Shown piece by piece: positions 444 through 58,296 of a stretch of DNA of 64,000 nt. Under the pieces are notes generated by a model. That model was not told the origin of the DNA. It did no database searches and saw only the letters and a list, made by a program, of their open reading frames with translations. Each line of letters starts with the position of its first letter. Position 1 is the stretch's first letter. Position numbers and translations under genes: made by a program. This DNA comes from Rhodobacterales bacterium (GTDB lineage Bacteria > Pseudomonadota > Alphaproteobacteria > Rhodobacterales > Rhodobacteraceae), in NCBI GenBank assembly GCA_031409795.1, contig JANNXX010000041.1, positions 11,210-75,209 on the forward strand, written 5' to 3'.

Positions 444-1886
444 TCAGCCGTGCTTGATCATCACATGCCGGACGACAGTGTAATCTTCCAGCGCATAGGC
501 GGACATGTCCTTGCCGTAGCCGCTTTGCTTCAACCCGCCGTGCGGCATTTCATTGGTCAGCATGAAATGCGTGTTGATCCAGGTGCAGCCGTAGCGCAGC
601 CGCGCGGCCGTCGCCATCGCGCGGCCGACGTCGCGGGTCCAGACCGAAGAGGCCAGCCCGTAGTCGCTGTCATTGGCCCAACCCACGGCGTCATCGACAT
701 CCGAGAAAGGTGTGACAGACACGACCGGGCCGAATACCTCGCGGCGCACGATCTCGTCGTCCTGCTTTGCCCCGGCCACCACCGTGGGTCGGTAGTAGAA
801 GCCCTGGTCCATCGCCTCGCCGCCCGTTGTCACCTGCACATGGTTCAACTCCCGTGCGCGGTTGACGAAGCTGGCCACCCGGTCGCGCTGGCGCTGGCTG
901 ATCAGGGGGCCGATCTCGTTGGTGGTGTCATCCTCGGCGCCAAGGGTGATCGAGGCGGCGGCAGAGGTCAGGTCGGCGACCAGCCGGTCATAGACCTTTT
1001 TCCCGGCATAGACGCGGCAGGCGGCGGTGCAGTCCTGCCCGGCGTTGTAGAAGCTGAAGGCGCGCAGGCCTTCGACCACAGCACTGATATCGGCGTCATC
1101 GAAGACGATGACCGGGGCCTTGCCGCCCAGTTCCAGATGGGTGCGCTTGACGGTCTTGGCGGCGGCATCCAGCATCTTCTTGCCGGTCGCCACATCGCCG
1201 GTCAGGCTGATCATGTCCACGCCGGGATGGTTGATCAGGTAGCTTCCGACGGTCTGGCCGCGCCCGGTAACCACGCTGACCACACCGTCAGGCAGTTCGT
1301 CAGCCAGGATCTTCGCCATCTTCAGCGCGGTCAGCGGGGTCTGCTCGCTGGGCTTGAAGATCACCGTATTGCCGCCGCCAATGGCGGGGCCAAGCTTCCA
1401 GGCCATCATCATCAAGGGGTAGTTCCAGGGCGCGATGGAGGCCACCACGCCGACCGGATCGCGGCGGATCATGCTGGTGTGGCCGGACAGGTATTCGCCG
1501 GCAACGGTTCCGTGCTGGCAGCGCACGGCGCCCGCGAAGTAGCGGTAGCAATCGACGATGGCGGGAATTTCATCGTTCAGGGCGGCGTTGATCGGCTTGC
1601 CGCAGTTCAGCGCCTCCAGCGCGGCAAAGCTGTCCGCCTCGGCCTCGACCCGGTCGGCAATGCGCAGAAGGGCGGCCGAACGTTCGGCCGGCGTGGTGCG
1701 CGACCAGCCCTCGAACGCCTTGCGGGCGGCGGCGACGGCGCGGTCAACCTGGGCGGGCGAGGCTTCGGGCACCTCAAGGATCAGCGCGCCGGTGCGCGGG
1801 TTCAGGATCTGCTCGCGCGCTTCGTGGCCCAACTCGAAGGTGGACCCGATCAGAAGGGCGGTGTCGATGGTGGTGAGGGTGTCCAT
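444..1886 (-). CDS. patD: Gamma-aminobutyraldehyde (1-pyrroline) dehydrogenase, ALDH family
   Basis: 480 aa; ALDH motifs PWNYP, FTG-like SLTG, ELGGK (catalytic Glu), GQDCTA (catalytic Cys), EVFGP; last gene of a ydcSTUV-like operon as in E. coli ydcW/patD. Confidence 0.9.
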
Positions 1887-1898
1887 GACGAAGGTTCC

Positions 1899-2717
1899 TT
1901 ATTTGCCCATGCCGGCGGTCTCGGATCCGCCGCGGGTCAGGTAATAGGCTGCAAGGATCGGCACGAAGGTGGCCGCGAAGACCACGATGGCGACGACATT
2001 GGTGACCGGGCGTTGCCGTGGGCGCACCAGCTCGTTCAGCATCCAGATCGGCAGGGTGCTTTGCTGCCCGGCGGTGAAGGTGGTGACGATGACCTCGTCG
2101 AACGACAGGGCAAAGGCCAGCATCCCCCCCGCCAGCAAGGCGGAGCCGAGGTTGGGCCTCAGCACATGGCGGAAGGTCTGGAAGGCGTTGGCGCCAAGGT
2201 CGGCCGAGGCCTCCATGATCCCGCCGGAAAGGCGCCGCATCCGGGCGACGGCGTTGTTGTAGACGATGACGATGCAGAAGGTGGCGTGGCCCAGCACGAT
2301 GGTCCAGGTGGAAAACGGGATGTCCATCACCCCGAAGGCCGACCGGAGCGACATGCCGGTGATGACGCCGGGCAGGGCGATGGGCAAGAGGATCAGCAGG
2401 CTGATCTGATCGCGGCCGAAGAACCTGGCCCGCGCCATCGCGGCGGCGACCAGGGTGCCAAGGATCATGGCCAGCGCGGTCGAGATCGCGGCGACCTTCA
2501 GCGACAGGAACAGGGGCGGCCAGATATCCTCACGCGCCCAGGCGACGCCGAACCACTGGGTCGTCAGGCCGGGGGGTGGAAACTGGTAGGTGCGTTCCTC
2601 GGTGGTGAAAGCGTAGAGGAAGATCAGCAGGATCGGCAGGTGCAGGAACAAAAGCCCACCCAGCGCCGCGACCTTCAGGCCAAGGGTGGCAGTGGGGGCC
2701 TGGGGATCAGAGCGCAT
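1899..2717 (-). CDS. ydcV: Polyamine ABC transporter permease (YdcV/PotC-like)
   Basis: Hydrophobic helices; EAA loop [15 protein letters not shown]; [10 protein letters not shown] motif; ATG 2717 chosen because it overlaps the end of the upstream gene. Confidence 0.85.
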
Positions 2718-3645
2718 CGAAGGCCCCCGCGCGTTTGGCAAGCGTCAGATAGACCAGCATGATCAGGATCGGAACCACGGCGAAGGCGGCGGCCAGGGGC
2801 GTGTTCCCGGCGGTGCCCTGCAACTGGTAGACGGCAAGGCCGATGAAGCGGGCGCTGTCGCCGACGATCTGCGGAATGATGTAGTCGCCCAGCGTCAGCG
2901 AGAAGGTGAAGATCGATCCGGCGATCACCCCCGGCATGGCCAGCGGCAGGACCACGGTGCGGAAGGTCTGCGACCGGGTGGCGCCAAGATCGGCCGAGGC
3001 TTCCAGCATCGAGGTCGGCACCCGTTCAAGCGCGGCCTGCATCGGCAGGATCATGTAGGGCAGCCAGACGTAGACAAAGACCAGGAAGGTGCCGAAGGGC
3101 GAGGTGGAGAGGGACGAGCCTTCAAGCCCGGGGATGGCCAGGACGGCGTCGATCAGGAACCCGGTCCCGGTGCCCTCGGCGGCCCAGGTCACGATGCCCT
3201 CCTTCGCGAGAATCAGTTTCCAGGCGTAGACCTTGACCAGGTAGCTGGACCACAAGGGCAGCATGACTCCAAGGTAGAAGGCCGCTTTCCACGGGCCTTT
3301 TGCGTAGCGGGCAGCGTAGTAGGCGATGGGGAAGGCCAGCACGGCGCAGGCCAGGGTTACCGCGGCGGACATCACCACGGTGCGCAGGATGATGTCGAGG
3401 TTCTGGGCGCGAAACAGCTCGGCATAGGTCTTGAGGGTGAACTCTTCCTTCACCACGCCCGAAAACTCGTCGATCGAGTAGAAGCTTTGCAGGAGAAGTG
3501 CGGCAAGCGAGCCCAGATAGACCACGCCCAGCCAGAGAAGCGGCGGGGTGACCAGAAGCAGCAGAAGGACGTTCGGCCGGCGCCAGAAGAGTCCGGTCAG
3601 CCGGTCAGACACGCCACGGGCGGGAAGGATTGCGGGGGCGGTCAA
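2707..3645 (-). CDS. ydcU: Polyamine ABC transporter permease (YdcU/PotB-like); start uncertain (TTG 3645 or GTG 3834)
   Basis: [18 protein letters not shown] loop; FSLTLGDYI motif; permease-like sequence begins at about TTG 3645 ([11 protein letters not shown]). Confidence 0.8.
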
Positions 3646-3665
3646 CGCGGCGCCCCCGGCCCGGA

Positions 3666-3688
3666 AAAATCCTTGAAGGAAGGATTTT
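3666..3688. repeat. Palindrome related to the TTCGAA-core family (family B)
   Basis: AAAATCCTT-GAAGG-AAGGATTTT, inside the ~180 bp insert between the ATPase and permease genes. Confidence 0.55.
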
Positions 3689-3826
3689 GGGCGCCCGGTT
3701 GCAGGAGACGGCCAGCGTTGCCGGGGTCGGAGCCTCTGGCGGGGAAATTTGCGGACGAGGAATGGCGCGGGCTGACCCACATTCTGCGCCCCTTGCAACG
3801 GTCGGGCTGGGCATTGTCGACAGGCA

Positions 3827-4825
3827 TCAGGCACCCCCCATCAGGTGCAGGGCCGAAGGTTCGAAGGCGATTGCGGTCCGCTCGCCTTCGGCAGGGACCG
3901 GCTGGCCCGCCGGGACAAGGGCGGCGATTTCCGTCCCGTCGGCGTCCAGCACCACGCGGGTGCCCGAGCCAAGGTAGCGCAGCGCCGTGACGCGGCCGGT
4001 CACCGGGCCGGTCGCGGCCAGGCGGGTCGCCTCGGGGCGCAGCGAGGCCCAGCTGTCCGGGCCACCAAGCGCGCGGGTCAGGGCCGGCGGCAGTACGTTC
4101 GACGAGCCGACGAAATCGGCGACGAAGCGGGTGGCGGGCCGGTCGTAGATGTCCTGCGGCGAGCCGATCTGGGCGATGCGGCCCTCGTTGAAGACGGCGA
4201 GGTGATCGGCCATCGACAGGGCCTCGTGCTGGTCATGGGTGACGAAGACGAAGGTCAGGCCCAGGCGGTGTTGCAGGGCCTTCAGCTCGTCCTGCATCGC
4301 CTCGCGCAGCTTGAGGTCAAGCGCGCCAAGCGGTTCGTCCAGGAGCAGCACCCGCGGTTCGTTCACCAGCGCCCGGGCCAGGGCGACACGCTGGCGCTGG
4401 CCGCCGGACAGCTGCGCGGGCTTGCGGTCGCCGTAGGCGTCCAGCTTGACCAGGGCAAGCATTTCCTCGGCCTTGGCATGGCGTCTGGCGCGCGGGGTGC
4501 CCTTGACCATCAGCCCATAGGCCACGTTGTCGCGCACGTTCAGGTGCGGAAAGAGCGCGTAGTCCTGAAACACCGTGTTGACGTTGCGCAAATGTGGCGG
4601 GGTGTTCGAGACATCCTCGCCGAAGATGCGGATCTGGCCGCCGGTTGGTTTCTCGAAGCCCGAGATCAGGCGCAGGCAGGTGGTCTTGCCCGACCCGGAC
4701 GGCCCCAGCATGGCGAAGAACGAGCCCTCGGCGATGGTCAGATCGACGCCATCGACGGCCTTCACCGGTGCGGAGGCGGGGCCGAAATGGCGCGAGACGG
4801 AGTGGAAGGTGACGGCAGCGGTCAT
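3827..4825 (-). CDS. ydcT: Polyamine ABC transporter ATP-binding protein (YdcT/PotA-like)
   Basis: Walker A GPSGSGKT, signature LSGGQRQRV, Walker B LLLDE, H-loop; alternative start at 4840. Confidence 0.92.
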
Positions 4826-4943
4826 GGGGCTTTCTTGCATAGAACGGGCAAGCCTCCCGTTTTCACCGTCCCTGAAGACAGGGAAGGCGGCGCGGGGTGC
4901 CCAAAGGTAAGGCCTGCGGCGACAGTCAGTTCGGAAAAGGTGG

Positions 4944-4980
4944 CTCCCCTTCCCCTTGGCGGGGGAGGGGAGGAGCGGGG
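4944..4980 (-). repeat. REP-like palindrome (family A)
   Basis: Minus strand CCCCGCTCCTCCCCTCCCCC-GCCAA-GGGGAAGGGGAG, just downstream of the SBP stop codon. Confidence 0.65.
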
Positions 4981-4996
4981 TTTCCCCCGACCGGGC

Positions 4997-6154
4997 TTAG
5001 CGCCCGCCGATCACGCCGATATAGTCCGAGACCCAGCGGTAATAGGGCACGCACATGCCGTCGCCCTGGGCGCAGTTCGACACGGGGGTGGTCCAGAACC
5101 GGATCTTCTCGAAGTCGTCAAGCCCGTTGGCGGTACAGGTTTCCGCCGTGGCCATGCCGCGCCCGTCGGTGCAGGCCGCCGGAACCGAGGGGTTCGCGCC
5201 GAACCAGACCGCAAGGTCGGATTGCAGGTTCGAGGACAGCGTGTGTTCCATCCACAGATAGGCGCAGTTCGGGTTCGCCGCATCGACATGCATCATCGTC
5301 GTGTCAGCCCAGCCGGTGGCGCCTTCCTGAGGGATCACCGAGGCGACGGGCTGGCCTTCGCCTTTCAGGAGGTTGACCTGGAAGGGCCAGGACCCGGACG
5401 CGACCACGCCTTCGTTCTTGAAGTCATCCATCTGGATGAAGGCGTCGTGCCAGTAGCGCGAGGTCAGGTCGCGTTGAACGCGCAGCAGATCAAGCGCGGC
5501 CTTGTACTGCTCTTCGTTCAGCTCGTAGGGCGAGGTGATGCCAAGTTCCGGCTTGTGGAACATCAGGTATTGCGCCGCATCGGCGACGTGGATCGGGCCG
5601 TCATAGGCCTGGACCCGGCCCTTGTTCGACTGGCCGTCGGGCAGAGTGGTTTCCTCGAACACCACCGACCACGAGGTTGGCGGTTCCTTGAAAACCTCGG
5701 TGTTGTACATCAGCACGTTCGGTCCCCACATGTAGGGAACGCCGAAATGCACGCCGTCGACCGTGTGCCAGGGCGCGCTTTGCAGGCGGGGGTCGACGGT
5801 GGACCAGGACGGGATCAGGTCGATGTTGACCGGCTGCACGCGGTCACCGGCCACCAGACGCAGCGAGGCGTCGCCCGAGGCGGTCACCAGGTCAAAGCCG
5901 CCTTCGTTCATCAGCGCAACCATTTCATCCGAGGTGTTCGCGGTCTTGACGTTGACCTTGCACCCGCTGGCAGCTTCGAACTTGGTGACCCAGTCGAAGG
6001 TCTTGTCGGTTTCGCCACGCTCGATGTAGCCAGGCCAGGCGACGATGTTCACCTGGCCTTCCGGCGCGCCGATTTCAGTGATCTGGGCCAGTGCCGGGGT
6101 CAGCCCGGTCAGCACGGCAAGGGCCGTCGTGGCCATCAGCTTCATGTGTCTCAT
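4997..6154 (-). CDS. ydcS: Polyamine ABC transporter substrate-binding protein (YdcS-like)
   Basis: Signal peptide; AWPGYIERGETDK...DWVTKFE, SDEMV, TASGDASLRL and WGPN segments match what I recall of E. coli YdcS; SD GGGAG upstream of ATG 6154. Confidence 0.9.
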   Translation of the reverse strand: MRHMKLMATTALAVLTGLTPALAQITEIGAPEGQVNIVAWPGYIERGETDKTFDWVTKFEAASGCKVNVKTANTSDEMVALMNEGGFDLVTASGDASLRLVAGDRVQPVNIDLIPSWSTVDPRLQSAPWHTVDGVHFGVPYMWGPNVLMYNTEVFKEPPTSWSVVFEETTLPDGQSNKGRVQAYDGPIHVADAAQYLMFHKPELGITSPYELNEEQYKAALDLLRVQRDLTSRYWHDAFIQMDDFKNEGVVASGSWPFQVNLLKGEGQPVASVIPQEGATGWADTTMMHVDAANPNCAYLWMEHTLSSNLQSDLAVWFGANPSVPAACTDGRGMATAETCTANGLDDFEKIRFWTTPVSNCAQGDGMCVPYYRWVSDYIGVIGGR

Positions 6155-6265
6155 CGCAAACTCCCTCTGGTTGGTCGCGCACAGCCGCGCCACGCCGGTT
6201 TTCCGGTCATGTCAGCACGCTACGACCACCGGAAGAAATCGCAATAACAAAACGGGGATGAGAGG

Positions 6266-23149: not shown

Positions 23150-23287
23150 GCCCGCCTTCTTACCCTCCGGGTGACGAAATTGAAACATTGCCCGGCCAGC
23201 CGACACGACCGCGTGAGATTTCGGTCGCAAATCTTGCGGGCGGCGTGATCGGGCTGCATGTCCGTTCCACAGGCAGTGGAGGTTGCA

Positions 23288-23974
23288 ATGGCTGGACTTC
23301 GGAAGATCCTCTTGGTTGACGATGACGACGACCTGCGCGAGGCGCTGAGCGAACAGCTGGTGATGACCGAGGATTTCGACGTGTTCGAAGCCCGCACCGG
23401 TGCCGAGGGCATGGAGAAGGCCAAGGCCGGGCTTTACGATCTGGTGATCCTGGACGTGGGCCTGCCCGATACCGACGGCCGTGAGCTGTGCCGCAGGATG
23501 CGCAAGGGCGGGGTGAAATGCCCGATCCTGATGCTGACCGGGCATGACACCGACAGCGACACGATCCTGGGCCTTGATGCCGGTGCCAACGACTATGTGA
23601 CCAAGCCGTTCAAGTTCCCGGTGCTTCTGGCCCGCATCCGCGCGCAGCTGCGCACGCATGAACAGTCGGAAGACGCGATCTTCCAGATGGGCCCCTACAC
23701 GTTCAAGCCCGCGCAGAAGATGCTGCTGGACGAAAAGGAAAAGAAGATCCGCCTGACCGAGAAAGAGACAAACATCCTGAAATACCTCTACCGCGCGCAG
23801 TCGGGCGTGGTGGCGCGGGATGTCCTGCTGCACGAGGTCTGGGGCTACAACGCCGGGGTCACCACCCACACGCTGGAGACCCATATCTACCGGCTGCGCC
23901 AGAAGATCGAGCCCGATCCCTCGAACGCGCGGCTGCTGGTCACCGAAAGCGGTGGCTACCGGCTGGTCGCCTGA
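23288..23974 (+). CDS. cenR: OmpR-family response regulator, CenR-like
   Basis: Receiver domain (DDD, LDV phospho-Asp, KPF) plus winged HTH ([20 protein letters not shown]); sequence and ribA linkage resemble alphaproteobacterial CenR. Confidence 0.8.
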
Positions 23975-24074
23975 CCTTACGGCAATTCTGATGCCCGGCG
24001 GCAACGCCGGGCTGCGTCCGCCTTGCAACAGCCCTGAAATCTTGCGCATTGGGGCTTATTGTCGCCGGAATTGC

Positions 24075-24189
24075 TTGCTAGCTTTCTCGCATGCACCGGT
24101 TGTGCAGCAGGTTCCCCTTGTCGCGTCGGGGTTATGGCGCGGCATCCTCCCTGTTGGACCTGGCCGGGCCGCTTGCCCGGCCTTTTTTT
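24075..24189 (+). ncRNA. Candidate SorX-like 3'UTR-derived small RNA (5' end approximate)
   Basis: Anti-SD motif ATCCTCCCTG (24144-24153) followed by a strong terminator, in the 3' UTR of the CenR/OmpR-1-type gene where SorX is known to lie in R. sphaeroides. Confidence 0.65.
24162..24189 (+). terminator. Rho-independent terminator of the cenR/sRNA transcript
   Basis: GGCCGGGC-CGCTT-GCCCGGCC-TTTTTTT. Confidence 0.9.
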
Positions 24190-24231
24190 GTCCTGGTTGC
24201 CCCGGCCTTCGCGCACTGTTAGCCAAGGGCG

Positions 24232-25197
24232 ATGCGGATCCTGGCTTTCCTTCTTGCCATCCTTGTCAGCCTTGCGCTGGTGCTGGTGTTGGGACTGCGC
24301 CTTGCAGCGGCGATCCGCGAGGCAGGCGTGCTGCCGGTCCGCCTCCCCGAAGAAGGCCGGATCGTCGAGACCGCCCTTGGCCCGATCTACGTCGAAGAGC
24401 TGGGGTCCCCGGACGGCGCGCCACTGTTCTTGGTGCATGGTTCGGTCGGCTGGTCGCGGATGTGGCGGCCGACCTCCGAGGCTTTGGCGGCGGCAGGCTA
24501 CCGTGTCATGGCCTTCGACATGCCACCGATGGGGTGGTCGTTCCGTGATCCCGAAGGCGACTACAGCCGCCAGACCCAGGCGAAGCGACTTCTGGCGCTG
24601 GCCGAGGCGGTGGGGGTCAGGCCGGTGCTGGTGGCGCATTCCTTCGGCGCCGGTGCCGCCTCCGAAGCCGCGATGCTGCAGCCGGACGCCTTCGCCGGGC
24701 TGGTCGTGGTCTCGGGTGCGATCGGGCTTGACCAGGACGGGGCGGGGCAGTCGCCGCCCTGGCCGCTGGGCTATCCCTTCCTGCGCGAACTGGCGATCTC
24801 GGCCACGGTGACCAATCCACCGGCAATGGGTCCGATGCTGCGGCGGTTCCTGCATCGCACCGATGCTGCGACCCCCGACATCATCGCCATGCTGAACCGC
24901 CCGAACCGCCGTGCCGGGACGACCGCTGCACTGGCCGACTGGCTGCCAAGCCTGCTTGTGCCGCCTGCGGGGGCCCTGTCGACGCAGCCGGAAAACTGGC
25001 AGGGCTTCCCCGTGCCGCTGGCCTTCCTCTGGGGCGACCGCGACACCGCGACCCCGCTGGATCAGGGCCAGCGCCTTGCTGGCCTGACCGGCGCGCCGCT
25101 TTCCATCCTGACCGAGGTCGGCCATATTCCCCAGATCGAGGCCCCGGCCGAGTTTCAGGCCTTGCTGATCGCTGCCCTTGCCGAAATCACCCCCTGA
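24232..25197 (+). CDS. Membrane-anchored alpha/beta hydrolase
   Basis: N-terminal TM; LVHG oxyanion segment; AHSFG nucleophile elbow; WGDRD; GH near the C-terminus. Confidence 0.85.
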   Translation: MRILAFLLAILVSLALVLVLGLRLAAAIREAGVLPVRLPEEGRIVETALGPIYVEELGSPDGAPLFLVHGSVGWSRMWRPTSEALAAAGYRVMAFDMPPMGWSFRDPEGDYSRQTQAKRLLALAEAVGVRPVLVAHSFGAGAASEAAMLQPDAFAGLVVVSGAIGLDQDGAGQSPPWPLGYPFLRELAISATVTNPPAMGPMLRRFLHRTDAATPDIIAMLNRPNRRAGTTAALADWLPSLLVPPAGALSTQPENWQGFPVPLAFLWGDRDTATPLDQGQRLAGLTGAPLSILTEVGHIPQIEAPAEFQALLIAALAEITP

Positions 25198-52120: not shown

Positions 52121-52735
52121 TCAGCCCCGCAACAGCGCGGCAAGGCTGGCGGTCTGGGCATCGTTCATCCGGTGAAGGTCGGCAAGCTGCATGCTTTCTG
52201 CCTTCACGAACTCGATGAACATCTGGTTCAGCGTGTTGAACACGATCTGGCCGACCACCCCCGGCTTCAGGTCGGGGCGGGCCAGCCGACGCTTCTGCAA
52301 GGCGGCGATCAGGGCACTGACCTGCGCGACCAGCATGGCGTCAAGCTCGGTATAGCGTTGCGAGAACGGCGTGCCCGGCGCCTCGATCGAAAAGGCCATC
52401 GCCTTGCGCCACATCTCTTTCGACAGGTAGTTGAGCGAATGGTCATAATAGAGTCGGATCAGACGGCGCAGGGCCAGTTCCACGTCGGGCGGCGGGGCCT
52501 CGACCACGGCGCGCCCGGCCCCGACCACCTCTTCCACCTCCATCGACACGATGGCCAGCAGTAGGTCGCCCTTTGTTGAGAAATAATTGTAGCAGGTTCC
52601 AGCCGACACTTCGGCGGCGGCGGCGATATCCTCGATCCTGACCGCGTCATAGCCCTGTGCGCGGAACAGGGTTGAGGCCGCCTCAAGAATACGCCTTGTG
52701 CGGTCGGCCTTCTGTCTTTCGCGCAGTCCGGTCAT
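52121..52735 (-). CDS. TetR-family transcriptional regulator
   Basis: ILEAASTLFRAQGY...IEDIAAAAEVSAGTCYNYFSTKGDLL HTH. Confidence 0.92.
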   Translation of the reverse strand: MTGLRERQKADRTRRILEAASTLFRAQGYDAVRIEDIAAAAEVSAGTCYNYFSTKGDLLLAIVSMEVEEVVGAGRAVVEAPPPDVELALRRLIRLYYDHSLNYLSKEMWRKAMAFSIEAPGTPFSQRYTELDAMLVAQVSALIAALQKRRLARPDLKPGVVGQIVFNTLNQMFIEFVKAESMQLADLHRMNDAQTASLAALLRG

Positions 52736-52756
52736 GCTGTTCTCAAATCGCCCATA

Positions 52757-52776
52757 TTTTGATGTTGACTTCAAAA
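52757..52776. promoter_or_regulatory. Possible TetR operator in the divergent promoter
   Basis: TTTTGA-TGTTGACT-TCAAAA dyad in an AT-rich divergent intergenic region, overlapping a TTGACT -35-like hexamer. Confidence 0.4.
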
Positions 52777-52841
52777 ATGAACGAACTCAATCTTTTTGTG
52801 AAGCGCCCGCCAGAGGCCCCCACCCCAACCCGGAGAAGATC

Positions 52842-53891
52842 ATGGCCCAGACCCGCCTTGCTGCCACCTCGCTTGCCCTGCTGCTGACTTCCACCCCCGG
52901 GCTTGCGCAAGAGTTGAACGCCCTTGTGTGGTGCGACCACACCGACCCCGCGCTGACCAAGCCGTTCGAAGAGAAGTTCGGCGTCAAGGTGAACCTGAAG
53001 GAATACGAAGGCACTGCGGCGGGCCTGGCGATCCTGGAGCAGTCGCAGCCCGGGGACTGGGACGTTCTGGTGATCGACGCGGTCGACGTGGGCCGCGCGG
53101 TCGAGGCCGGGCATCTGGCGGAACTGCCGGCGGACAAGCTGCCCACGGCGGATTTCTTTCCGGAGCTGGTGATGGCCGAGAACAACATGGTCGGCGGCAA
53201 GACCTATGCCGTGACGGAAAAATTCGGCTACAACACCATCTCTTACGACAAGTCCAAGGTCGACCCGGCGGATATGGAGGATATGGCCACCTTGACCAGC
53301 GGCAAGTACGACGGGCGGATCGGGATCTACGACTACTACTTGCCGGTCATCGGGCTGGTGGCACTGGGGCAGGGGATCAATACGGCGGACATCTCGGCCG
53401 ACACCCTCGGGTCGCTGAAGGATCCGCTGATGGCCCTGCGCGGCGCGGCCAAGCAGGTGTCGGACGTGGTGTCGGCCCAGACCGCGTTGGCGACGGGCGA
53501 GGTGGATATCATCGTCGGAGGCGGCGAATGGCTGACGGCGGTGCTGGCGGCCGAGAACCCGAACCTCGACTGGACGATCCCGAAGCAGGGCGCCCTGCGC
53601 TGGGCGCAGTCGATCGGCGTGGTGGCCGGGTCGACCCAGCCCGATCTGGCGCTGGAGTTCGTCACCTACATCACCTCGCCCGAGGGGCAGGCGCGGCTGG
53701 CCACATCCTCGTGCTACTGGGGGATGCCGGCGAACGCCAAGGCCGGGGATCTGCTGACGCCGGAACAGAAGGCGGTGCTGCGCTGGGACCAGCAGCCCGA
53801 GTTCCTGGCCCGCGCCCAGCTTTACCCGATCCCGGATGCCGCCCTTGACACCGCAATGCAGGATCTCTGGACCGAGATGCTGGCCCGGTAA
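52842..53891 (+). CDS. Polyamine-type (PotD/PotF family) ABC substrate-binding protein
   Basis: Signal peptide; VWCDH, DWDVLV, KFGYNTISY, EG-like QGALRWAQSIGV. Confidence 0.85.
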   Translation: MAQTRLAATSLALLLTSTPGLAQELNALVWCDHTDPALTKPFEEKFGVKVNLKEYEGTAAGLAILEQSQPGDWDVLVIDAVDVGRAVEAGHLAELPADKLPTADFFPELVMAENNMVGGKTYAVTEKFGYNTISYDKSKVDPADMEDMATLTSGKYDGRIGIYDYYLPVIGLVALGQGINTADISADTLGSLKDPLMALRGAAKQVSDVVSAQTALATGEVDIIVGGGEWLTAVLAAENPNLDWTIPKQGALRWAQSIGVVAGSTQPDLALEFVTYITSPEGQARLATSSCYWGMPANAKAGDLLTPEQKAVLRWDQQPEFLARAQLYPIPDAALDTAMQDLWTEMLAR

Positions 53892-53900
53892 GCCCGCGCG

Positions 53901-54755
53901 ATGTCACTGGCCGGACAAGACCGCCGTCTGGGCTGGGGGCTGATCGCCCCGGCGCTGATCTGGACGGCGGTTTTCTTCCTTCTGCCCTTTCTGGCGATGG
54001 TGGCGCTGTCCTTCGCGTCGATGACCGGGCGGCAGGTGGTGCATGGCTTCGACCCCGGCAACTATGTCCGCATCTTCACCGACCCGACGATGCTGGGCGC
54101 GCTGGTCAACAGCCTGCAGATCACGGCTGTCGTGACCGTGATCTCGGTCATCCTGGCCTACCCGCTGGCCGCGATCATCGCCTTCCGGGTGCCTGCACGC
54201 TGGCAGCGGCTGGCGCTTCTGCTGGCTGTGCTGCCGTTCTGGACGTCCTACGTCGTGCGGTCCTACTCCTGGCTGCTGGTGCTGGGGCAGAACGGGGTGG
54301 TGAACCAGACGCTGCTGGGTCTGGGTGTCATCGCTGAGCCCTTGGAGATCGCCTCGACCCGGGCGGCGACTGTGATCGGCTTCGTGCATTTCTTCGTCAT
54401 GCTGCTGACGCTGACGATCTATGCCAACCTCATCCAGCTGTCGCCGAACTATGCCCGCGCGGCGCAGGACCTTGGGGCCGGTCGCTGGCAGACCTTCGCC
54501 CATGTGATCCTGCCGCTGACCCTGCCGGGGGTGGTGACCGGGGCGTTCCTGACCTTCGTGCTGTGCATCGGCGACTACATCACGCCGCAGATCCTGGGCG
54601 GGAATGCCGAATTGACGCTGCCGCAGCTGATCATGCTGCAACTGGGGCGCAGCGGGAACTTTCCTTTGGCCTCGGCCCTTTCGGTGGTGCTGATGGCGGT
54701 GGTGACGCTGGCCTATGTCGCATCGAGCCGCTGGTTGCGGCTGGACCGGGTATGA
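53901..54755 (+). CDS. ABC transporter permease (PotB-like)
   Basis: LPFWTSYVVRSYSW; AAQDLGAGRWQTF EAA loop; GDYITPQILGG. Confidence 0.9.
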   Translation: MSLAGQDRRLGWGLIAPALIWTAVFFLLPFLAMVALSFASMTGRQVVHGFDPGNYVRIFTDPTMLGALVNSLQITAVVTVISVILAYPLAAIIAFRVPARWQRLALLLAVLPFWTSYVVRSYSWLLVLGQNGVVNQTLLGLGVIAEPLEIASTRAATVIGFVHFFVMLLTLTIYANLIQLSPNYARAAQDLGAGRWQTFAHVILPLTLPGVVTGAFLTFVLCIGDYITPQILGGNAELTLPQLIMLQLGRSGNFPLASALSVVLMAVVTLAYVASSRWLRLDRV

Positions 54756-54761
54756 TGGGGC

Positions 54762-54827
54762 GCTCGTCGATGACTTCGTCACTCCTCGCTGCGGGTGCTC
54801 CGACGAGGAGACGAAGTCGAACGAGGA
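54762..54827. repeat. Long imperfect inverted repeat inserted between permease genes
   Basis: CTCGT..GACTTCGTC.CTCCTCG / CGAGGAG-ACGAAGTC..ACGAG; insert flanked by ATGATG on both sides. Confidence 0.7.
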
Positions 54828-54837
54828 GGCTGTCGCG

Positions 54838-55608
54838 ATGATGCGTGTCCTCTCCTGGGCCTATCTCGGACTCGCCTATTTCTTCGTCTTCCTGCCGGTC
54901 GTCGTGCTGGTGGTGTTCAGCTTTCAGGACGGCCGTCTGCCGGTGCCTCCGTTAAAAGGCTTCACGCTGGACTGGTATGCCAAGGTCATTGGCGACGAAG
55001 CCCTGATGGCGGCGCTGGTGAACTCGCTGGCCGTTGCCGTCGTCTCGTCCGCCGTGGCGCTGGTCCTGGGCTTCCTTGCCGCGCATGCGCTGGCCCGTGT
55101 CCGCTTGCCGGGCTCGGCGCTGCTGCGCGGGGTGCTGATCGCGCCGATGACGGTCAGTTACCTGATCATCGCGCTGGGCCTTCTGACCGTTTTCAATCAG
55201 CTGGGCCTTCGCCCGTCGCTCATGGCCGCCGGGATCGGGCATGTGGTGATCAACCTGCCCCTGTGTTTTGCCATCACCTATGCCGCGATGGGCGACCACC
55301 AGAAATCCGCCGAACGCGCCGCGCGCGATCTGGGCGCGCCGGAATGGAAGGTGCTGGCGCTGGTCTCCGCCCCGATGCTAACCGCCCCCCTTGCCGCCGC
55401 CTTCTTCCTGTCCGTCACCTTCAGCTGGGACGAGTTCATCATCGCCTTCCTGCTGACCCGCTTTGACGTGACCCTGCCGGTCGAGATCTGGTCGATGTTG
55501 AAATCCGGCCTGTCGCCCGCGACCAATGCCGTCGGCGCGCTGGTGTTCCTTGTTTCGGTGGCGCTGGTGATCGTGCTTGAACTGACAGTTTTCCGGAGGG
55601 CAAGATGA
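54838..55608 (+). CDS. ABC transporter permease (PotC-like)
   Basis: SD GAGGAGG; FTLDWY; ERAARDLGA; FSWDEFI; TLPVEIW. Confidence 0.9.
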   Translation: MMRVLSWAYLGLAYFFVFLPVVVLVVFSFQDGRLPVPPLKGFTLDWYAKVIGDEALMAALVNSLAVAVVSSAVALVLGFLAAHALARVRLPGSALLRGVLIAPMTVSYLIIALGLLTVFNQLGLRPSLMAAGIGHVVINLPLCFAITYAAMGDHQKSAERAARDLGAPEWKVLALVSAPMLTAPLAAAFFLSVTFSWDEFIIAFLLTRFDVTLPVEIWSMLKSGLSPATNAVGALVFLVSVALVIVLELTVFRRAR

Positions 55609-56603
55609 CTGCCGCGGTGTCCATCCTGCAGGTGTCGCAACGCTATGGCAGCGCCACGGCGCTGGATGCCGTGACGCTTGATATCGAAGCGGGGGAGTTT
55701 GTCGTCCTCCTTGGCCCCTCGGGCTGCGGCAAGACCACGCTGCTCAACATCATCGGCGGCTTTGCCGAACCGACAGAAGGCCGCGTGCTGATCGGCGGGC
55801 GTGACATGGCAGGGGTGGCCCCGAAGGACCGGCCGACGACGACGGTGTTTCAGGATTATGCCCTCTTCCCCCACATTAGCCTGCGCGACAACGTGGCCTT
55901 CGGCCTGCGGATGCGCGGGGTTTCGCGGGCGAAACGCGCGGCGAAGGCCGACGCCATGCTGGCGTTGGTCGGCCTGGACGGGCGCAGCGACCATCGTCCG
56001 CATGAGCTGTCGGGCGGGCAGCGGCAGCGGGTGGCCCTGGCCCGAGCGCTGGCGGTGGAGCCCGAGGTTCTGCTTTTGGACGAACCGCTCGGCGCGCTGG
56101 ACCTGAAGCTGCGCCGCCAGATGCAGGACGAGCTGAAGGCGATCCAGCGCCGGGTGGGGACGACCTTTGTTCATGTGACCCATGACCAGGAGGAAGCGAT
56201 GGCCATCGCCGACCGCATCGTGGTGATGAACGCGGGGCAGGTCGAGGATTTCGCCCCCCCGCGTGAGGTGTACCTGCACCCCAAGACCCTATTTACCGCC
56301 AGTTTCATGGGCGAGGTGAACCGGGTTCCAGTGCTGGGCGGGCAAGCCCCCTTCGGCCCGGTGCCGGTGGCGGATGGCACGCTCTGCTTGCGGCCCGAAG
56401 CAATTTCCACCACGGGGACGCTGCGGCTCGGGCCATGCCGGGTGGCGGATGTGGCCTTCTTCGGCACCCATGTCCGTGCGCATGTGTCCCCACTGGCCGC
56501 GCCCGACTTGCGGCTGGTGGTGCATCTGCCGCAATCTGCGGTGCCAGAGGTCGGCGCGGTCCTGGACCTTGGGGCGGAAAGCCATGTGGTTCTGCAGGGA
56601 TGA
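55605..56603 (+). CDS. ABC transporter ATP-binding protein (PotA-like)
   Basis: [41 protein letters not shown]. Confidence 0.93.
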   Translation: MTAAVSILQVSQRYGSATALDAVTLDIEAGEFVVLLGPSGCGKTTLLNIIGGFAEPTEGRVLIGGRDMAGVAPKDRPTTTVFQDYALFPHISLRDNVAFGLRMRGVSRAKRAAKADAMLALVGLDGRSDHRPHELSGGQRQRVALARALAVEPEVLLLDEPLGALDLKLRRQMQDELKAIQRRVGTTFVHVTHDQEEAMAIADRIVVMNAGQVEDFAPPREVYLHPKTLFTASFMGEVNRVPVLGGQAPFGPVPVADGTLCLRPEAISTTGTLRLGPCRVADVAFFGTHVRAHVSPLAAPDLRLVVHLPQSAVPEVGAVLDLGAESHVVLQG

Positions 56604-57325
56604 GGGCACGGCCGGAAGACTGGTGGCGGGTGCGGTCGGTGGGCGACGGCGTCACCCATATCGACGAACCGCATATCCGCGAATTCTACCGCTGCAACGT
56701 CTGGCACGTCCGGGGGCGTGACAGCGACATGCTGGTCGACAGCGGCATGGGCGTCGTGTCCTTGCGCGACCGCGTTCCGCTGGTCACCGAACGCCCGTTG
56801 CAGGCGGTGGCCAGCCACACGCATTTCGACCACATCGGGCTGCACCACGAATTTCCCTGCCGGCTGTGCCACGGGGCAGAGGCGCATCTTCTGCGCGCAC
56901 CCACGCGGGAAAACACCTTTGCCGACAAGTATGTGACCGATGATATCTTCACCACCTTGCCGCCAGACCCCTTCACCTGCGCGACCTATGCCGTGCAAGC
57001 CGCCCCGGCCACACGGCTTCTGTGGGACGGCGATGTGGTCGATCTTGGCGACCGGCAGTTTCAGGTGATCCATACCCCTGGCCATTCCCCGGGCGGGATC
57101 GCCCTGTGGGAGGCAGCAACCGGGGTATTGTTTTCGGGCGATATCGTCTATGACGGCGAGCTGATCGAGGGCACAAGTGACCTTGAACAGGCACAGTATC
57201 TCGTGTCGATGGAGCGTCTGCTGGCCCTGCCGGTGCGGGTGGTGCATGGCGGACATTTCCCAAGTTACCCGGGCGCGCGGCACCGCGACATGATCAGCGT
57301 ATGGCTGAAAGGAAAAGGCATATGA
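56600..57325 (+). CDS. Metallo-beta-lactamase-fold hydrolase
   Basis: SHTHFDH (HxHxDH), HTPGHSPG, LFSGD, VHGGH. Confidence 0.9.
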   Translation: MRARPEDWWRVRSVGDGVTHIDEPHIREFYRCNVWHVRGRDSDMLVDSGMGVVSLRDRVPLVTERPLQAVASHTHFDHIGLHHEFPCRLCHGAEAHLLRAPTRENTFADKYVTDDIFTTLPPDPFTCATYAVQAAPATRLLWDGDVVDLGDRQFQVIHTPGHSPGGIALWEAATGVLFSGDIVYDGELIEGTSDLEQAQYLVSMERLLALPVRVVHGGHFPSYPGARHRDMISVWLKGKGI

Positions 57326-58296
57326 CCAGGTTCAACCAGCCGCTGGGCGGCAACGACATGCCGCGCTTCGGCGGGCCGGCAACGATGATGCGGCTGCCTG
57401 CGGCCACCTCGGCCAAGGGGCTGGACGTGGCCTTCATCGGCGTGCCAATGGACCACGGCACCAGCAACCGCCCCGGCACGCGGCTGGGGCCACGGCAGAT
57501 CAGGGACGAAAGCCGGATGATCCGGCCCTACAACATGGCCACCGGCGCGGCCCCCTTTGATCATCTGCAGGTCGCTGATATCGGCGATGTGGCGATCAAC
57601 ACCTTCGATCTGAAAAAGACCGTGGACATCATCACCGCCCACTACCGCGAGGTGCTTGGCCACGGCGTGATCCCCCTGACCCTTGGCGGCGACCACACCC
57701 TGACCTGGCCGATCCTGCGGGCGATCAGGGAACGGCACGGCCCGGTCGCCCTGATCCACATCGACGCGCATGCCGACATCAACGACACCATGTTCGGCGA
57801 GACGGTCGCGCACGGCTGCCCCTTCCGCCGCGCCTGGGAGGACGGCTGCCTGATCAACGACAAGGTGTTCCAGATCGGCCTGCGCGCCACCGGCTATGCG
57901 CCCGAGGATTTCGACTGGGCGCGCGGCCAGGGCTGGACGGTGGTGCAGGCCGAGGAATGCTGGCACAAATCGCTGACCGGCCTCATGGCGCAGGTCCGTG
58001 CGACGATCGGCGATGCGCCGGTCTACATCAGCTATGACATCGACAGCCTTGACCCGGCCTTTGCCCCGGGCACGGGAACAGTGGAACCAGGCGGCCTGTC
58101 CACCTGGCAGGCGCTGGAGATCATCCGGGGCTGTCAGGGGCTGAACATCGTCGGCGGCGACCTTGTCGAGGTGTCGCCGCCCTATGACCCCAGCGGCAAC
58201 ACCGCGCTGATCGGGGCGAACCTGCTGTACGAAATGCTGTGCGTCCTGCCCGGCGTGCCACAGGCACCGTCGCGCTTTTCCGGCCTGACGTTCTGA
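57322..58296 (+). CDS. Ureohydrolase (agmatinase family), guanidinobutyrase GbuA-like
   Basis: Canonical Mn ligands GGDH, DAHAD, DID; QPLGGNDMPRFGG and RPYNMATGAAPFD closely resemble Pseudomonas GbuA as I recall it. Confidence 0.88.
   Translation: MTRFNQPLGGNDMPRFGGPATMMRLPAATSAKGLDVAFIGVPMDHGTSNRPGTRLGPRQIRDESRMIRPYNMATGAAPFDHLQVADIGDVAINTFDLKKTVDIITAHYREVLGHGVIPLTLGGDHTLTWPILRAIRERHGPVALIHIDAHADINDTMFGETVAHGCPFRRAWEDGCLINDKVFQIGLRATGYAPEDFDWARGQGWTVVQAEECWHKSLTGLMAQVRATIGDAPVYISYDIDSLDPAFAPGTGTVEPGGLSTWQALEIIRGCQGLNIVGGDLVEVSPPYDPSGNTALIGANLLYEMLCVLPGVPQAPSRFSGLTF

Follow-up and report, generated by a model that had tools for sequence, protein, structure and literature searches.

A SorX regulatory RNA in the 3' tail of a CenR-type regulator gene from a freshwater member of the Rhodobacterales

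The closest described counterpart of the locus analyzed here is the small RNA SorX (RSs2461, RF02784) of Rhodobacter (Cereibacter) sphaeroides. In this organism, a 116-nt pre-SorX, whose 5' end lies 42 nt before the mature end, is processed by RNase E into the 75-nt SorX, and the potA gene of a spermidine importer is a validated target. According to the published model SorX is co-transcribed with cenR. In strain 2.4.1 the two 5' ends map to 2,598,182 and 2,598,224. The 5' end of pre-SorX is enriched on RNase E inactivation, as are true transcription starts, and ChIP-seq of FnrL detected a site in a region described as the putative promoter of RSs2461 (PMC4263372). The gene RSP_0847 encodes the essential envelope regulator CenR, which is phosphorylated by the orphan kinase CenK and controls the tol-pal and envelope genes (PMC9275681). 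RSP_0847 also appears in the RpoH regulon table and was reported to be RpoHI/II-dependent, the features of RpoHI/RpoHII promoters being TTG at positions -36..-34 and A at position -12 (PMC3441632).

We analyzed a 64-kb stretch of DNA (64,000 nucleotides, referred to below as the window) from a member of the Rhodobacterales, for which the original prediction had proposed a SorX homologue in the 3' UTR of a CenR-type regulator. A scan of the whole window with Rfam 15 at gathering thresholds gave a sole match, to the SorX family RF02784, at positions 24114..24188 of the forward strand. This match covers model positions 1-73 of 73 and scores 70.5 bits (E 3.2e-15), whereas the gathering score of the family is 46.6. 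Based on the Rfam match, the predicted fold and the covariation described below, we assign the mature RNA to 24114..24189 (+), with the 5' end inferred from the model alignment to within 2 nt on either side. This segment is SorX, a new member of a described and curated family of small RNAs, located where the family is expected. With such an E-value for the whole window, and with the 12-mer CCTCCCTGTTGG present at a single position in the 64 kb, the match lies well outside the range of chance. A covariance model of our own (see below) assigned 91.1 bits to the window RNA and detected no second or degenerate copy in the 140-nt spacer between cenR and SorX at E <= 1; the window thus holds one full SorX copy.

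A permissive Rfam scan of 23900..24300 revealed nothing besides SorX near a family threshold. Among the sub-threshold matches, SorY (RF02651) overlaps SorX at 24121..24189 with 35.3 bits versus a gathering score of 111, and its E-value of 1e-5 comes from a small search. The two Rhodobacter stress RNAs, SorY and SorX, may have a common seed and terminator module. The suhB/mmgR family (alpha-r8, RF00519), proposed at the outset as an alternative for comparison, was rejected because its score is 17.5 bits and its gathering score is 41.

The 76-nt RNA is predicted to fold with a minimum free energy of -36.7 kcal/mol (z -2.3). In the predicted fold, a 10-bp stem-loop 1 (24119..24144, +) is followed by a single-stranded seed (24144..24158, +), with AUCCUCCCUG located at 24144..24153. 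The core UCCCUGUU (24148..24155) has a predicted unpaired probability of 0.8-1.0 and is flanked by nothing but a weak 3-bp helix. The terminator (24162..24189, +), identified by a terminator scan, consists of GGCCGGGC (24162..24169), the loop CGCTT, GCCCGGCC (24175..24182) and T7 (24183..24189), so that the hairpin 24162..24182 is a perfect stem of eight G-C pairs. The scan found this one terminator-like site behind cenR, and it is common to cenR and SorX.

These features agree in large part with the original prediction. The UTR had been described as about 215 nt long; the TGA ends at 23974 and the T-run at 24189, and the tail 23975..24189 is indeed 215 nt. The strong terminator is likewise present as described. 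The interval given for the small RNA, 23974-24189, does contain SorX, but the RNA proper takes up only the last ~75 nt (24114..24188/9). The anti-Shine-Dalgarno motif, which had been called exposed, is predicted to be so in the mature 76-nt form but not in longer precursors, where positions 24150..24156 are predicted to be paired with the leader.

The regulator gene cenR (23288..23974, +; stop codon TGA at 23972..23974) encodes an OmpR-family response regulator of 228 aa, with a receiver and a winged-helix domain and full-length matches to OmpR/PhoB-family models. The longest open reading frame of cenR starts at 23258; the start at 23288 is better supported and was preferred because GGAGG is found 5 nt before its ATG, and because position 23258 lies inside the promoter motif described below. 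The key residues of CenR are D11-D13, D51 and the phospho-acceptor D56 (PMC9275681). With the ATG at 23288 as the first codon, the corresponding residues of the window protein are D11-D15, D51 and D56; this numbering supports both the orthology with CenR and the choice of the start codon. Together with the motif found upstream of the gene, it supports the assignment of the window regulator as the orthologue of CenR (RSP_0847). Among species-representative genomes, the closest proteins belong to Tabrizicola and other Paracoccaceae (up to 96% identity), and DNA near-identical to the window locus was found in freshwater-sediment metagenomes.

Upstream of cenR we identified, by motif match, a CenR-box-like inverted repeat, ACACGACCGCGTGAG (23203..23217, +), that is one base off ACACGAGCGCGTGAG, which was reported as the motif of the ChIP-seq peak at RSP_0847 in R. 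sphaeroides (PMC9275681). It is situated 30 nt upstream of a candidate sigma-32/RpoH-type promoter (23233..23261, +), which comprises CTTG (23233..23236), a 17-nt spacing and CTGCATGT, with A-12 at 23258 and a predicted start near 23270. In 52 of 81 sequences (80 related loci and the window), the 110 nt preceding cenR contain the pattern TTG-N19-21-YATNT at a conserved position; the CenR-box-like repeat likewise keeps its relative position in many of the loci shown. As far as motif matches can tell, the promoter and the repeat resemble those reported for R. sphaeroides.

To describe the distribution of SorX, we used 80 cenR loci taken from Rhodobacterales genomes, the R. sphaeroides locus being outside this set. 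Of 20 loci scanned with Rfam, 13 have a match immediately 3' of cenR that exceeds the SorX gathering score, and our covariance model was built from these 13 loci and the window (14 sequences). With this model, full-length matches 3' of cenR and on the same strand were obtained in 69 of the 80 loci; in a 70th (L007) the contig ends exactly at the SorX start. The 12-mer CCTCCCTGTTGG is exact in 58 of the 80. In the 14-sequence alignment a 13-nt core is invariant, and standard pairs are formed in 97% of the cells, versus 33-44% in slid controls. Compensatory changes were seen in 10 of the 15 pairs, including all seven of stem 1, and none of 500 shuffles reached the observed values of pairing and covariation. 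The aligned RNAs have in common a stem-loop at the 5' end, an unpaired CCUCCCUGUUGG seed and the hairpin of the terminator, with support from covariation.

The genes around SorX differ in how far they accompany it. In the window the order is ribA (divergent, upstream), cenR, SorX, an alpha/beta hydrolase gene from 24232, and then xth (exonuclease III), and the general order across loci is ribA (divergent), cenR, SorX, a variable insert and xth. Since ribA is present in 76 loci and xth in 55, but the hydrolase gene in only 3, SorX travels with cenR and not with the gene downstream. The Rfam score, the synteny, the covariation and the identity of the regulator all support the proposed homologue in the 3' UTR of a CenR-type gene, and the comparison with Rfam models came out in favor of SorX and against suhB/alpha-r8. 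The R. sphaeroides biology given as background to the original prediction agrees with the literature on RSP_0847 as CenR, the 116-nt pre-SorX and the 75-nt SorX, RNase E processing, and potA and spermidine.

The number and the form of SorX copies also vary among the loci. Tandem SorX elements, in two or three copies behind cenR, were observed in nine relatives (L001, L004, L006, L008, L009, L010, L013, L018 and L059). The copies of L001 are located at 3190-3268 and 3390-3464, and L018 has three; a counterpart of the first copy of L001 was not found in the window. In three other loci (L040, L051 and L075) a reduced SorX, without stem-loop 1, occupies the first ~60 nt after the cenR stop and keeps only a seed-like stretch (such as TTCCTCCCTGGAC) and the terminator.

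By extension from R. sphaeroides, cenR and SorX would be transcribed together from the RpoH-type promoter under oxidative or heat stress, and transcription would end at the terminator 24162..24189. Endonucleases would free a precursor from the cenR tail, and RNase E would cut it near RRGUU|CCCC (about 24112..24114) to give an RNA of ~75 nt. The product would consist of the 5' stem-loop, the single-stranded CCUCCCUGUUGGA seed, and the terminator hairpin followed by a U-tail. Hfq would bind this last part, and the hairpin and U7 tail are compatible with such binding. As in R. sphaeroides, the seed would mimic an anti-Shine-Dalgarno sequence, pair over ribosome-binding sites and block translation. 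The RRGUU|CCCC junction is conserved at the predicted SorX 5' end in the clade of the window.

The conserved part of the locus is present in freshwater and soil metatranscriptomes. In four metatranscriptomes compared with 23800..24300, contigs of relatives (90-95% alike) cover the 3' end of cenR, the tail and SorX, and one contig of 316 nt spans 23873..24189. These contigs stop at 24189/24190, and the depth beyond is zero in all four runs. The contigs are compatible with co-transcription and terminator use, weakly so because they are directionless, come from relatives and may include DNA carry-over.

Two further hairpins are predicted in the tail. A G+C-rich hairpin, GCCCGGCG-GCAA-CGCCGGGC (23994..24013, +), with eight G-C base pairs and no T-run, begins 20 nt after the cenR stop; it is part of the UTR fold and is not conserved as a hairpin in relatives. 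The leader of the presumed pre-SorX is predicted to form the hairpin TGCAC-CGGTT-GTGCA (24093..24107, +), and a leader hairpin of differing sequence is predicted at the same place in most close relatives; RNAalifold did not recover it as a consensus helix. In the predicted precursor fold of the window, CAGCAGG (24104..24110) pairs with CCUGUUG (24150..24156) of the seed. We considered masking of the seed by the leader, relieved by processing, as a general mechanism, and rejected it. RNAalifold gave no consensus helix for such pairing, and comparable masking relative to shuffled leaders was seen in only one of ten relatives (L006, with the short leader only).

Less easily reconciled with a simple scheme is a 28-nt A+T-rich block, TATTGTCGCCGGAATTGCTTGCTAGCTT (24057..24084, +), which is specific to the clade of the window and lies upstream of SorX. 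The positions ATTG..GCC..A.T...TA of this block are invariant in the window and nine close relatives, and its consensus reads TATTGYYGCC-NN-AWTY-N6-7-TA. The exact pattern occurs once per locus in ten loci and nowhere else in them. The distance from the block to SorX is 57 nt in the window and 57-61 nt in nine of 12 sequences, and position -42, at which the precursor begins in R. sphaeroides, corresponds to a point within the block. The block may direct processing, bind a regulator or serve as an unusual promoter. Compared by eye with consensus sequences, it fits none of the sigma-70, RpoH, sigma-54, sigma-28, EcfG or FNR sites.

A different arrangement was observed in marine relatives. Strict TTGAY-N4-RTCAA boxes (FNR/Crp-type) number 20 in the 433 kb of loci, and 13 of the 20 are found just upstream of the SorX match. 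Eleven of these 13, all in marine roseobacter loci (L021, L024, L037, L045, L053, L056, L057, L062, L067, L070 and L076; for example L037:3198-3211), have their center 41.5-45.5 nt ahead of the 5' end of SorX, and a -10-like hexamer (TAGATT/TAGGTT-like) comes after the box. This geometry suggests a class II FNR/Crp promoter starting at SorX, with a primary transcript that would begin there, and the boxes agree with the site that FnrL ChIP-seq located at RSs2461. In the window, an FNR-type box is not present upstream of SorX.

Together, the conserved block and the marine FNR boxes raise the possibility that SorX also arises by a route other than co-transcription with cenR. The strongest alternative to release from the cenR mRNA is accordingly that SorX is wholly or partly an independent transcript, with the block as an internal promoter or regulator site and the precursor as a primary transcript. 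The block is conserved as DNA at a fixed distance and is unique in each locus, and it has a TA-N3-T-like element followed by a leader that starts with a hairpin; the marine boxes with their hexamers, the FnrL site (PMC4263372) and the enrichment of the pre-SorX 5' end in R. sphaeroides when RNase E is inactive, as for true starts, point in the same direction. However, the TTG-TA spacing of the block is 14 nt, which does not suit sigma-70, and the block lacks the A at -12 expected for RpoH, the GG/GC of sigma-54 and an FNR box (all judged by eye against consensus sequences); a sigma-70 scan yielded no sites. In addition, contigs of relatives in the metatranscriptomes run through the block, and co-transcription is the published model. 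Across the loci, SorX follows the cenR stop codon at distances of about 0 to 290 nt. In 13 of them the gap is no more than about 20 nt, too short to accommodate a promoter, which argues for release from the cenR transcript as the general route. On balance, we consider an independent origin possible and rather unlikely. The block and the FNR boxes bear on how the precursor 5' end arises and on whether SorX has its own promoter.

Far less probable is the explanation that the element serves solely as an intrinsic terminator and 3' stabilizer of the cenR mRNA, and that the anti-Shine-Dalgarno-like stretch is incidental. The element holds the sole terminator of cenR and certainly has that role as well, but the last ~28 nt would suffice for it, whereas the invariant 13-nt core and the covarying stem 1 are kept across genera with about 85% CenR identity. 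The seed-like stretch beside the terminator is retained even in the three reduced versions, and a plain terminator does not explain the two or three tandem copies in several relatives. A small protein encoded by the existing open reading frame 24091..24222 (43 aa) can be practically dismissed, since relatives differ by single-base indels inside the frame (alignment columns 33-35 and 49-52), conservation follows base-pair covariation and not third-position variation, and the frame would run through the terminator. The joint explanation that we favor with high confidence is SorX in the cenR tail, presumably working as in R. sphaeroides.

The original prediction also drew attention to two polyamine-type ABC operons in the window, and both are present. 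A ydcS/T/U/V-like operon with an aminobutyraldehyde dehydrogenase gene (6154..444, -) is located 18 kb from SorX, and a potD/B/C/A-like operon (52698..56603, +), followed by an agmatinase gene, 28 kb from it. The adjoining agmatinase (57301..58296) and aminobutyraldehyde dehydrogenase (444..1886) genes place both transporters in contexts of polyamine catabolism or synthesis. That these operons and SorX lie in one window does not in itself point to a link, and the regulatory connection that had been drawn from it found no support: duplex predictions rank the operons no higher than other genes, and the start regions of the potA-like ATPase genes have no conserved site. A functional link between SorX and the polyamine operons of the window is hypothetical.

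In a ranking of 43 gene starts by duplex energy with the SorX seed, the ydcT (potA-like) start came seventh (-19.3 kcal/mol) and the second potA-like start fell near the middle (-15.5 kcal/mol). We rejected duplex-energy ranking, applied both to sliding segments of the entire window and to these 43 start regions, as non-discriminating, as it is dominated by G+C-rich noise and ordinary Shine-Dalgarno sequences. Complements of the 12-mer with up to two mismatches were no more numerous than expected by chance and, apart from the SorX antisense strand, did not occur in start regions. Among 77 related metagenome loci, no conserved complementarity was found at the ydcT (potA-like ATPase) starts. Autoregulation at the cenR start was also considered and rejected; a duplex of -19.8 kcal/mol is predicted there in the window, but its CCACAGG is absent from the relatives shown.

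The best candidate site in the window, a speculative one, is CCAAC-CAG-AGGGAG (6161..6174, -) at the ribosome-binding site of the ydcS-like gene, where the SorX seed is predicted to form 5 + 6 base pairs around a 3-nt bulge (-16.0 kcal/mol). The start of this gene was set at the ATG 6154..6152, preceded by CCAACCAGAGGGAG, the longest open reading frame with a start at 6193 being too long. In ydcS-like orthologues (L081-L160), the start regions often read (A)ACAGGGAG, which is over-represented and matches CUCCCUGU(UG) as a perfect complement over 8-10 nt, including in orthologues whose flanks have diverged. At least seven contiguous complementary bases were counted at 19 of 68 ydcS-like (binding protein) starts, in comparison with 3 of 77 ydcT (potA-like ATPase) starts, 9 of 80 cenR starts and one of the 43 window genes. 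These counts are suggestive; any Shine-Dalgarno sequence is, however, partly complementary to the SorX seed, the sequences are interrelated and the ydcS search windows were slightly longer. Judged from such complementarity, a real interaction of SorX with ydcS in the window organism is a tentative proposal that we would bet against. In the same operon, the 156-nt spacer between the ydcS-like and ydcT-like genes (4841..4996, -) contains the strong hairpins GGGGAAACCCC and CTCCCCTCCCCC...GGGGAAGGGGAG, and similar GGGAGGGATGGGGTGGGGGG-type elements recur in related loci; the spacer is possibly an intra-operon attenuator, a stabilizer or a repeat element.

These observations can be combined into a second joint scenario, in which the block of the freshwater Tabrizicola/Rhodobacter-like clade would provide a second input to SorX, like the FNR/Crp-type promoter of the marine loci, and the target in the polyamine operon would be the ydcS-like ribosome-binding site and not the ATPase gene. 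We consider this combination improbable, a little more so than either the independent transcript or the ydcS interaction taken separately. The FNR boxes, the clade-specific block, the tandem copies and the ydcS-type seed complementarity are side leads for laboratories that study SorX, and they leave the picture of its nature unchanged. That picture adds a reliable regulatory RNA annotation to an uncharacterized freshwater genome of the Paracoccaceae. It also indicates that a cenR-SorX module, with an RpoH-type promoter and a CenR-box-like repeat, is kept across the Rhodobacterales, and that an essential envelope regulator is thereby tied to a stress small RNA.

In comparison with SorX of R. 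sphaeroides, the window RNA has the same full-length match to the covariance model, the same place in the 3' UTR behind cenR/RSP_0847, two stem-loops that enclose the CCUCCCUGUUGG seed and a terminator common with cenR. By motif match, the sequence ahead of cenR also has an RpoH-type promoter and a CenR-box-like repeat. The window RNA differs in having 2 additional nt inserted after stem 1, ahead of the seed, and in a long spacer between the stop codon and SorX (140 nt) that carries the clade-specific block and the extra hairpin. Furthermore, the window is without an FNR-type box, whereas FnrL binds near SorX in R. sphaeroides. Two other RNA families compared, SorY (RF02651) and suhB/mmgR (alpha-r8, RF00519), have weak sub-threshold similarity over the seed-plus-terminator part, but the window RNA falls far below their gathering scores (111 and 41, respectively) and is a member of neither family. 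CpxQ (from cpxP), CcsR1-4 (from ccaF1) and PcrX (from puf) are 3' UTR-derived Hfq small RNAs processed by RNase E. They are unrelated in sequence to the window SorX, and none of them reached an Rfam score here. By analogy, the window RNA would be like them in having a promoter and a terminator in common with a stress-related mRNA and in being released from it by endonucleolytic cleavage.
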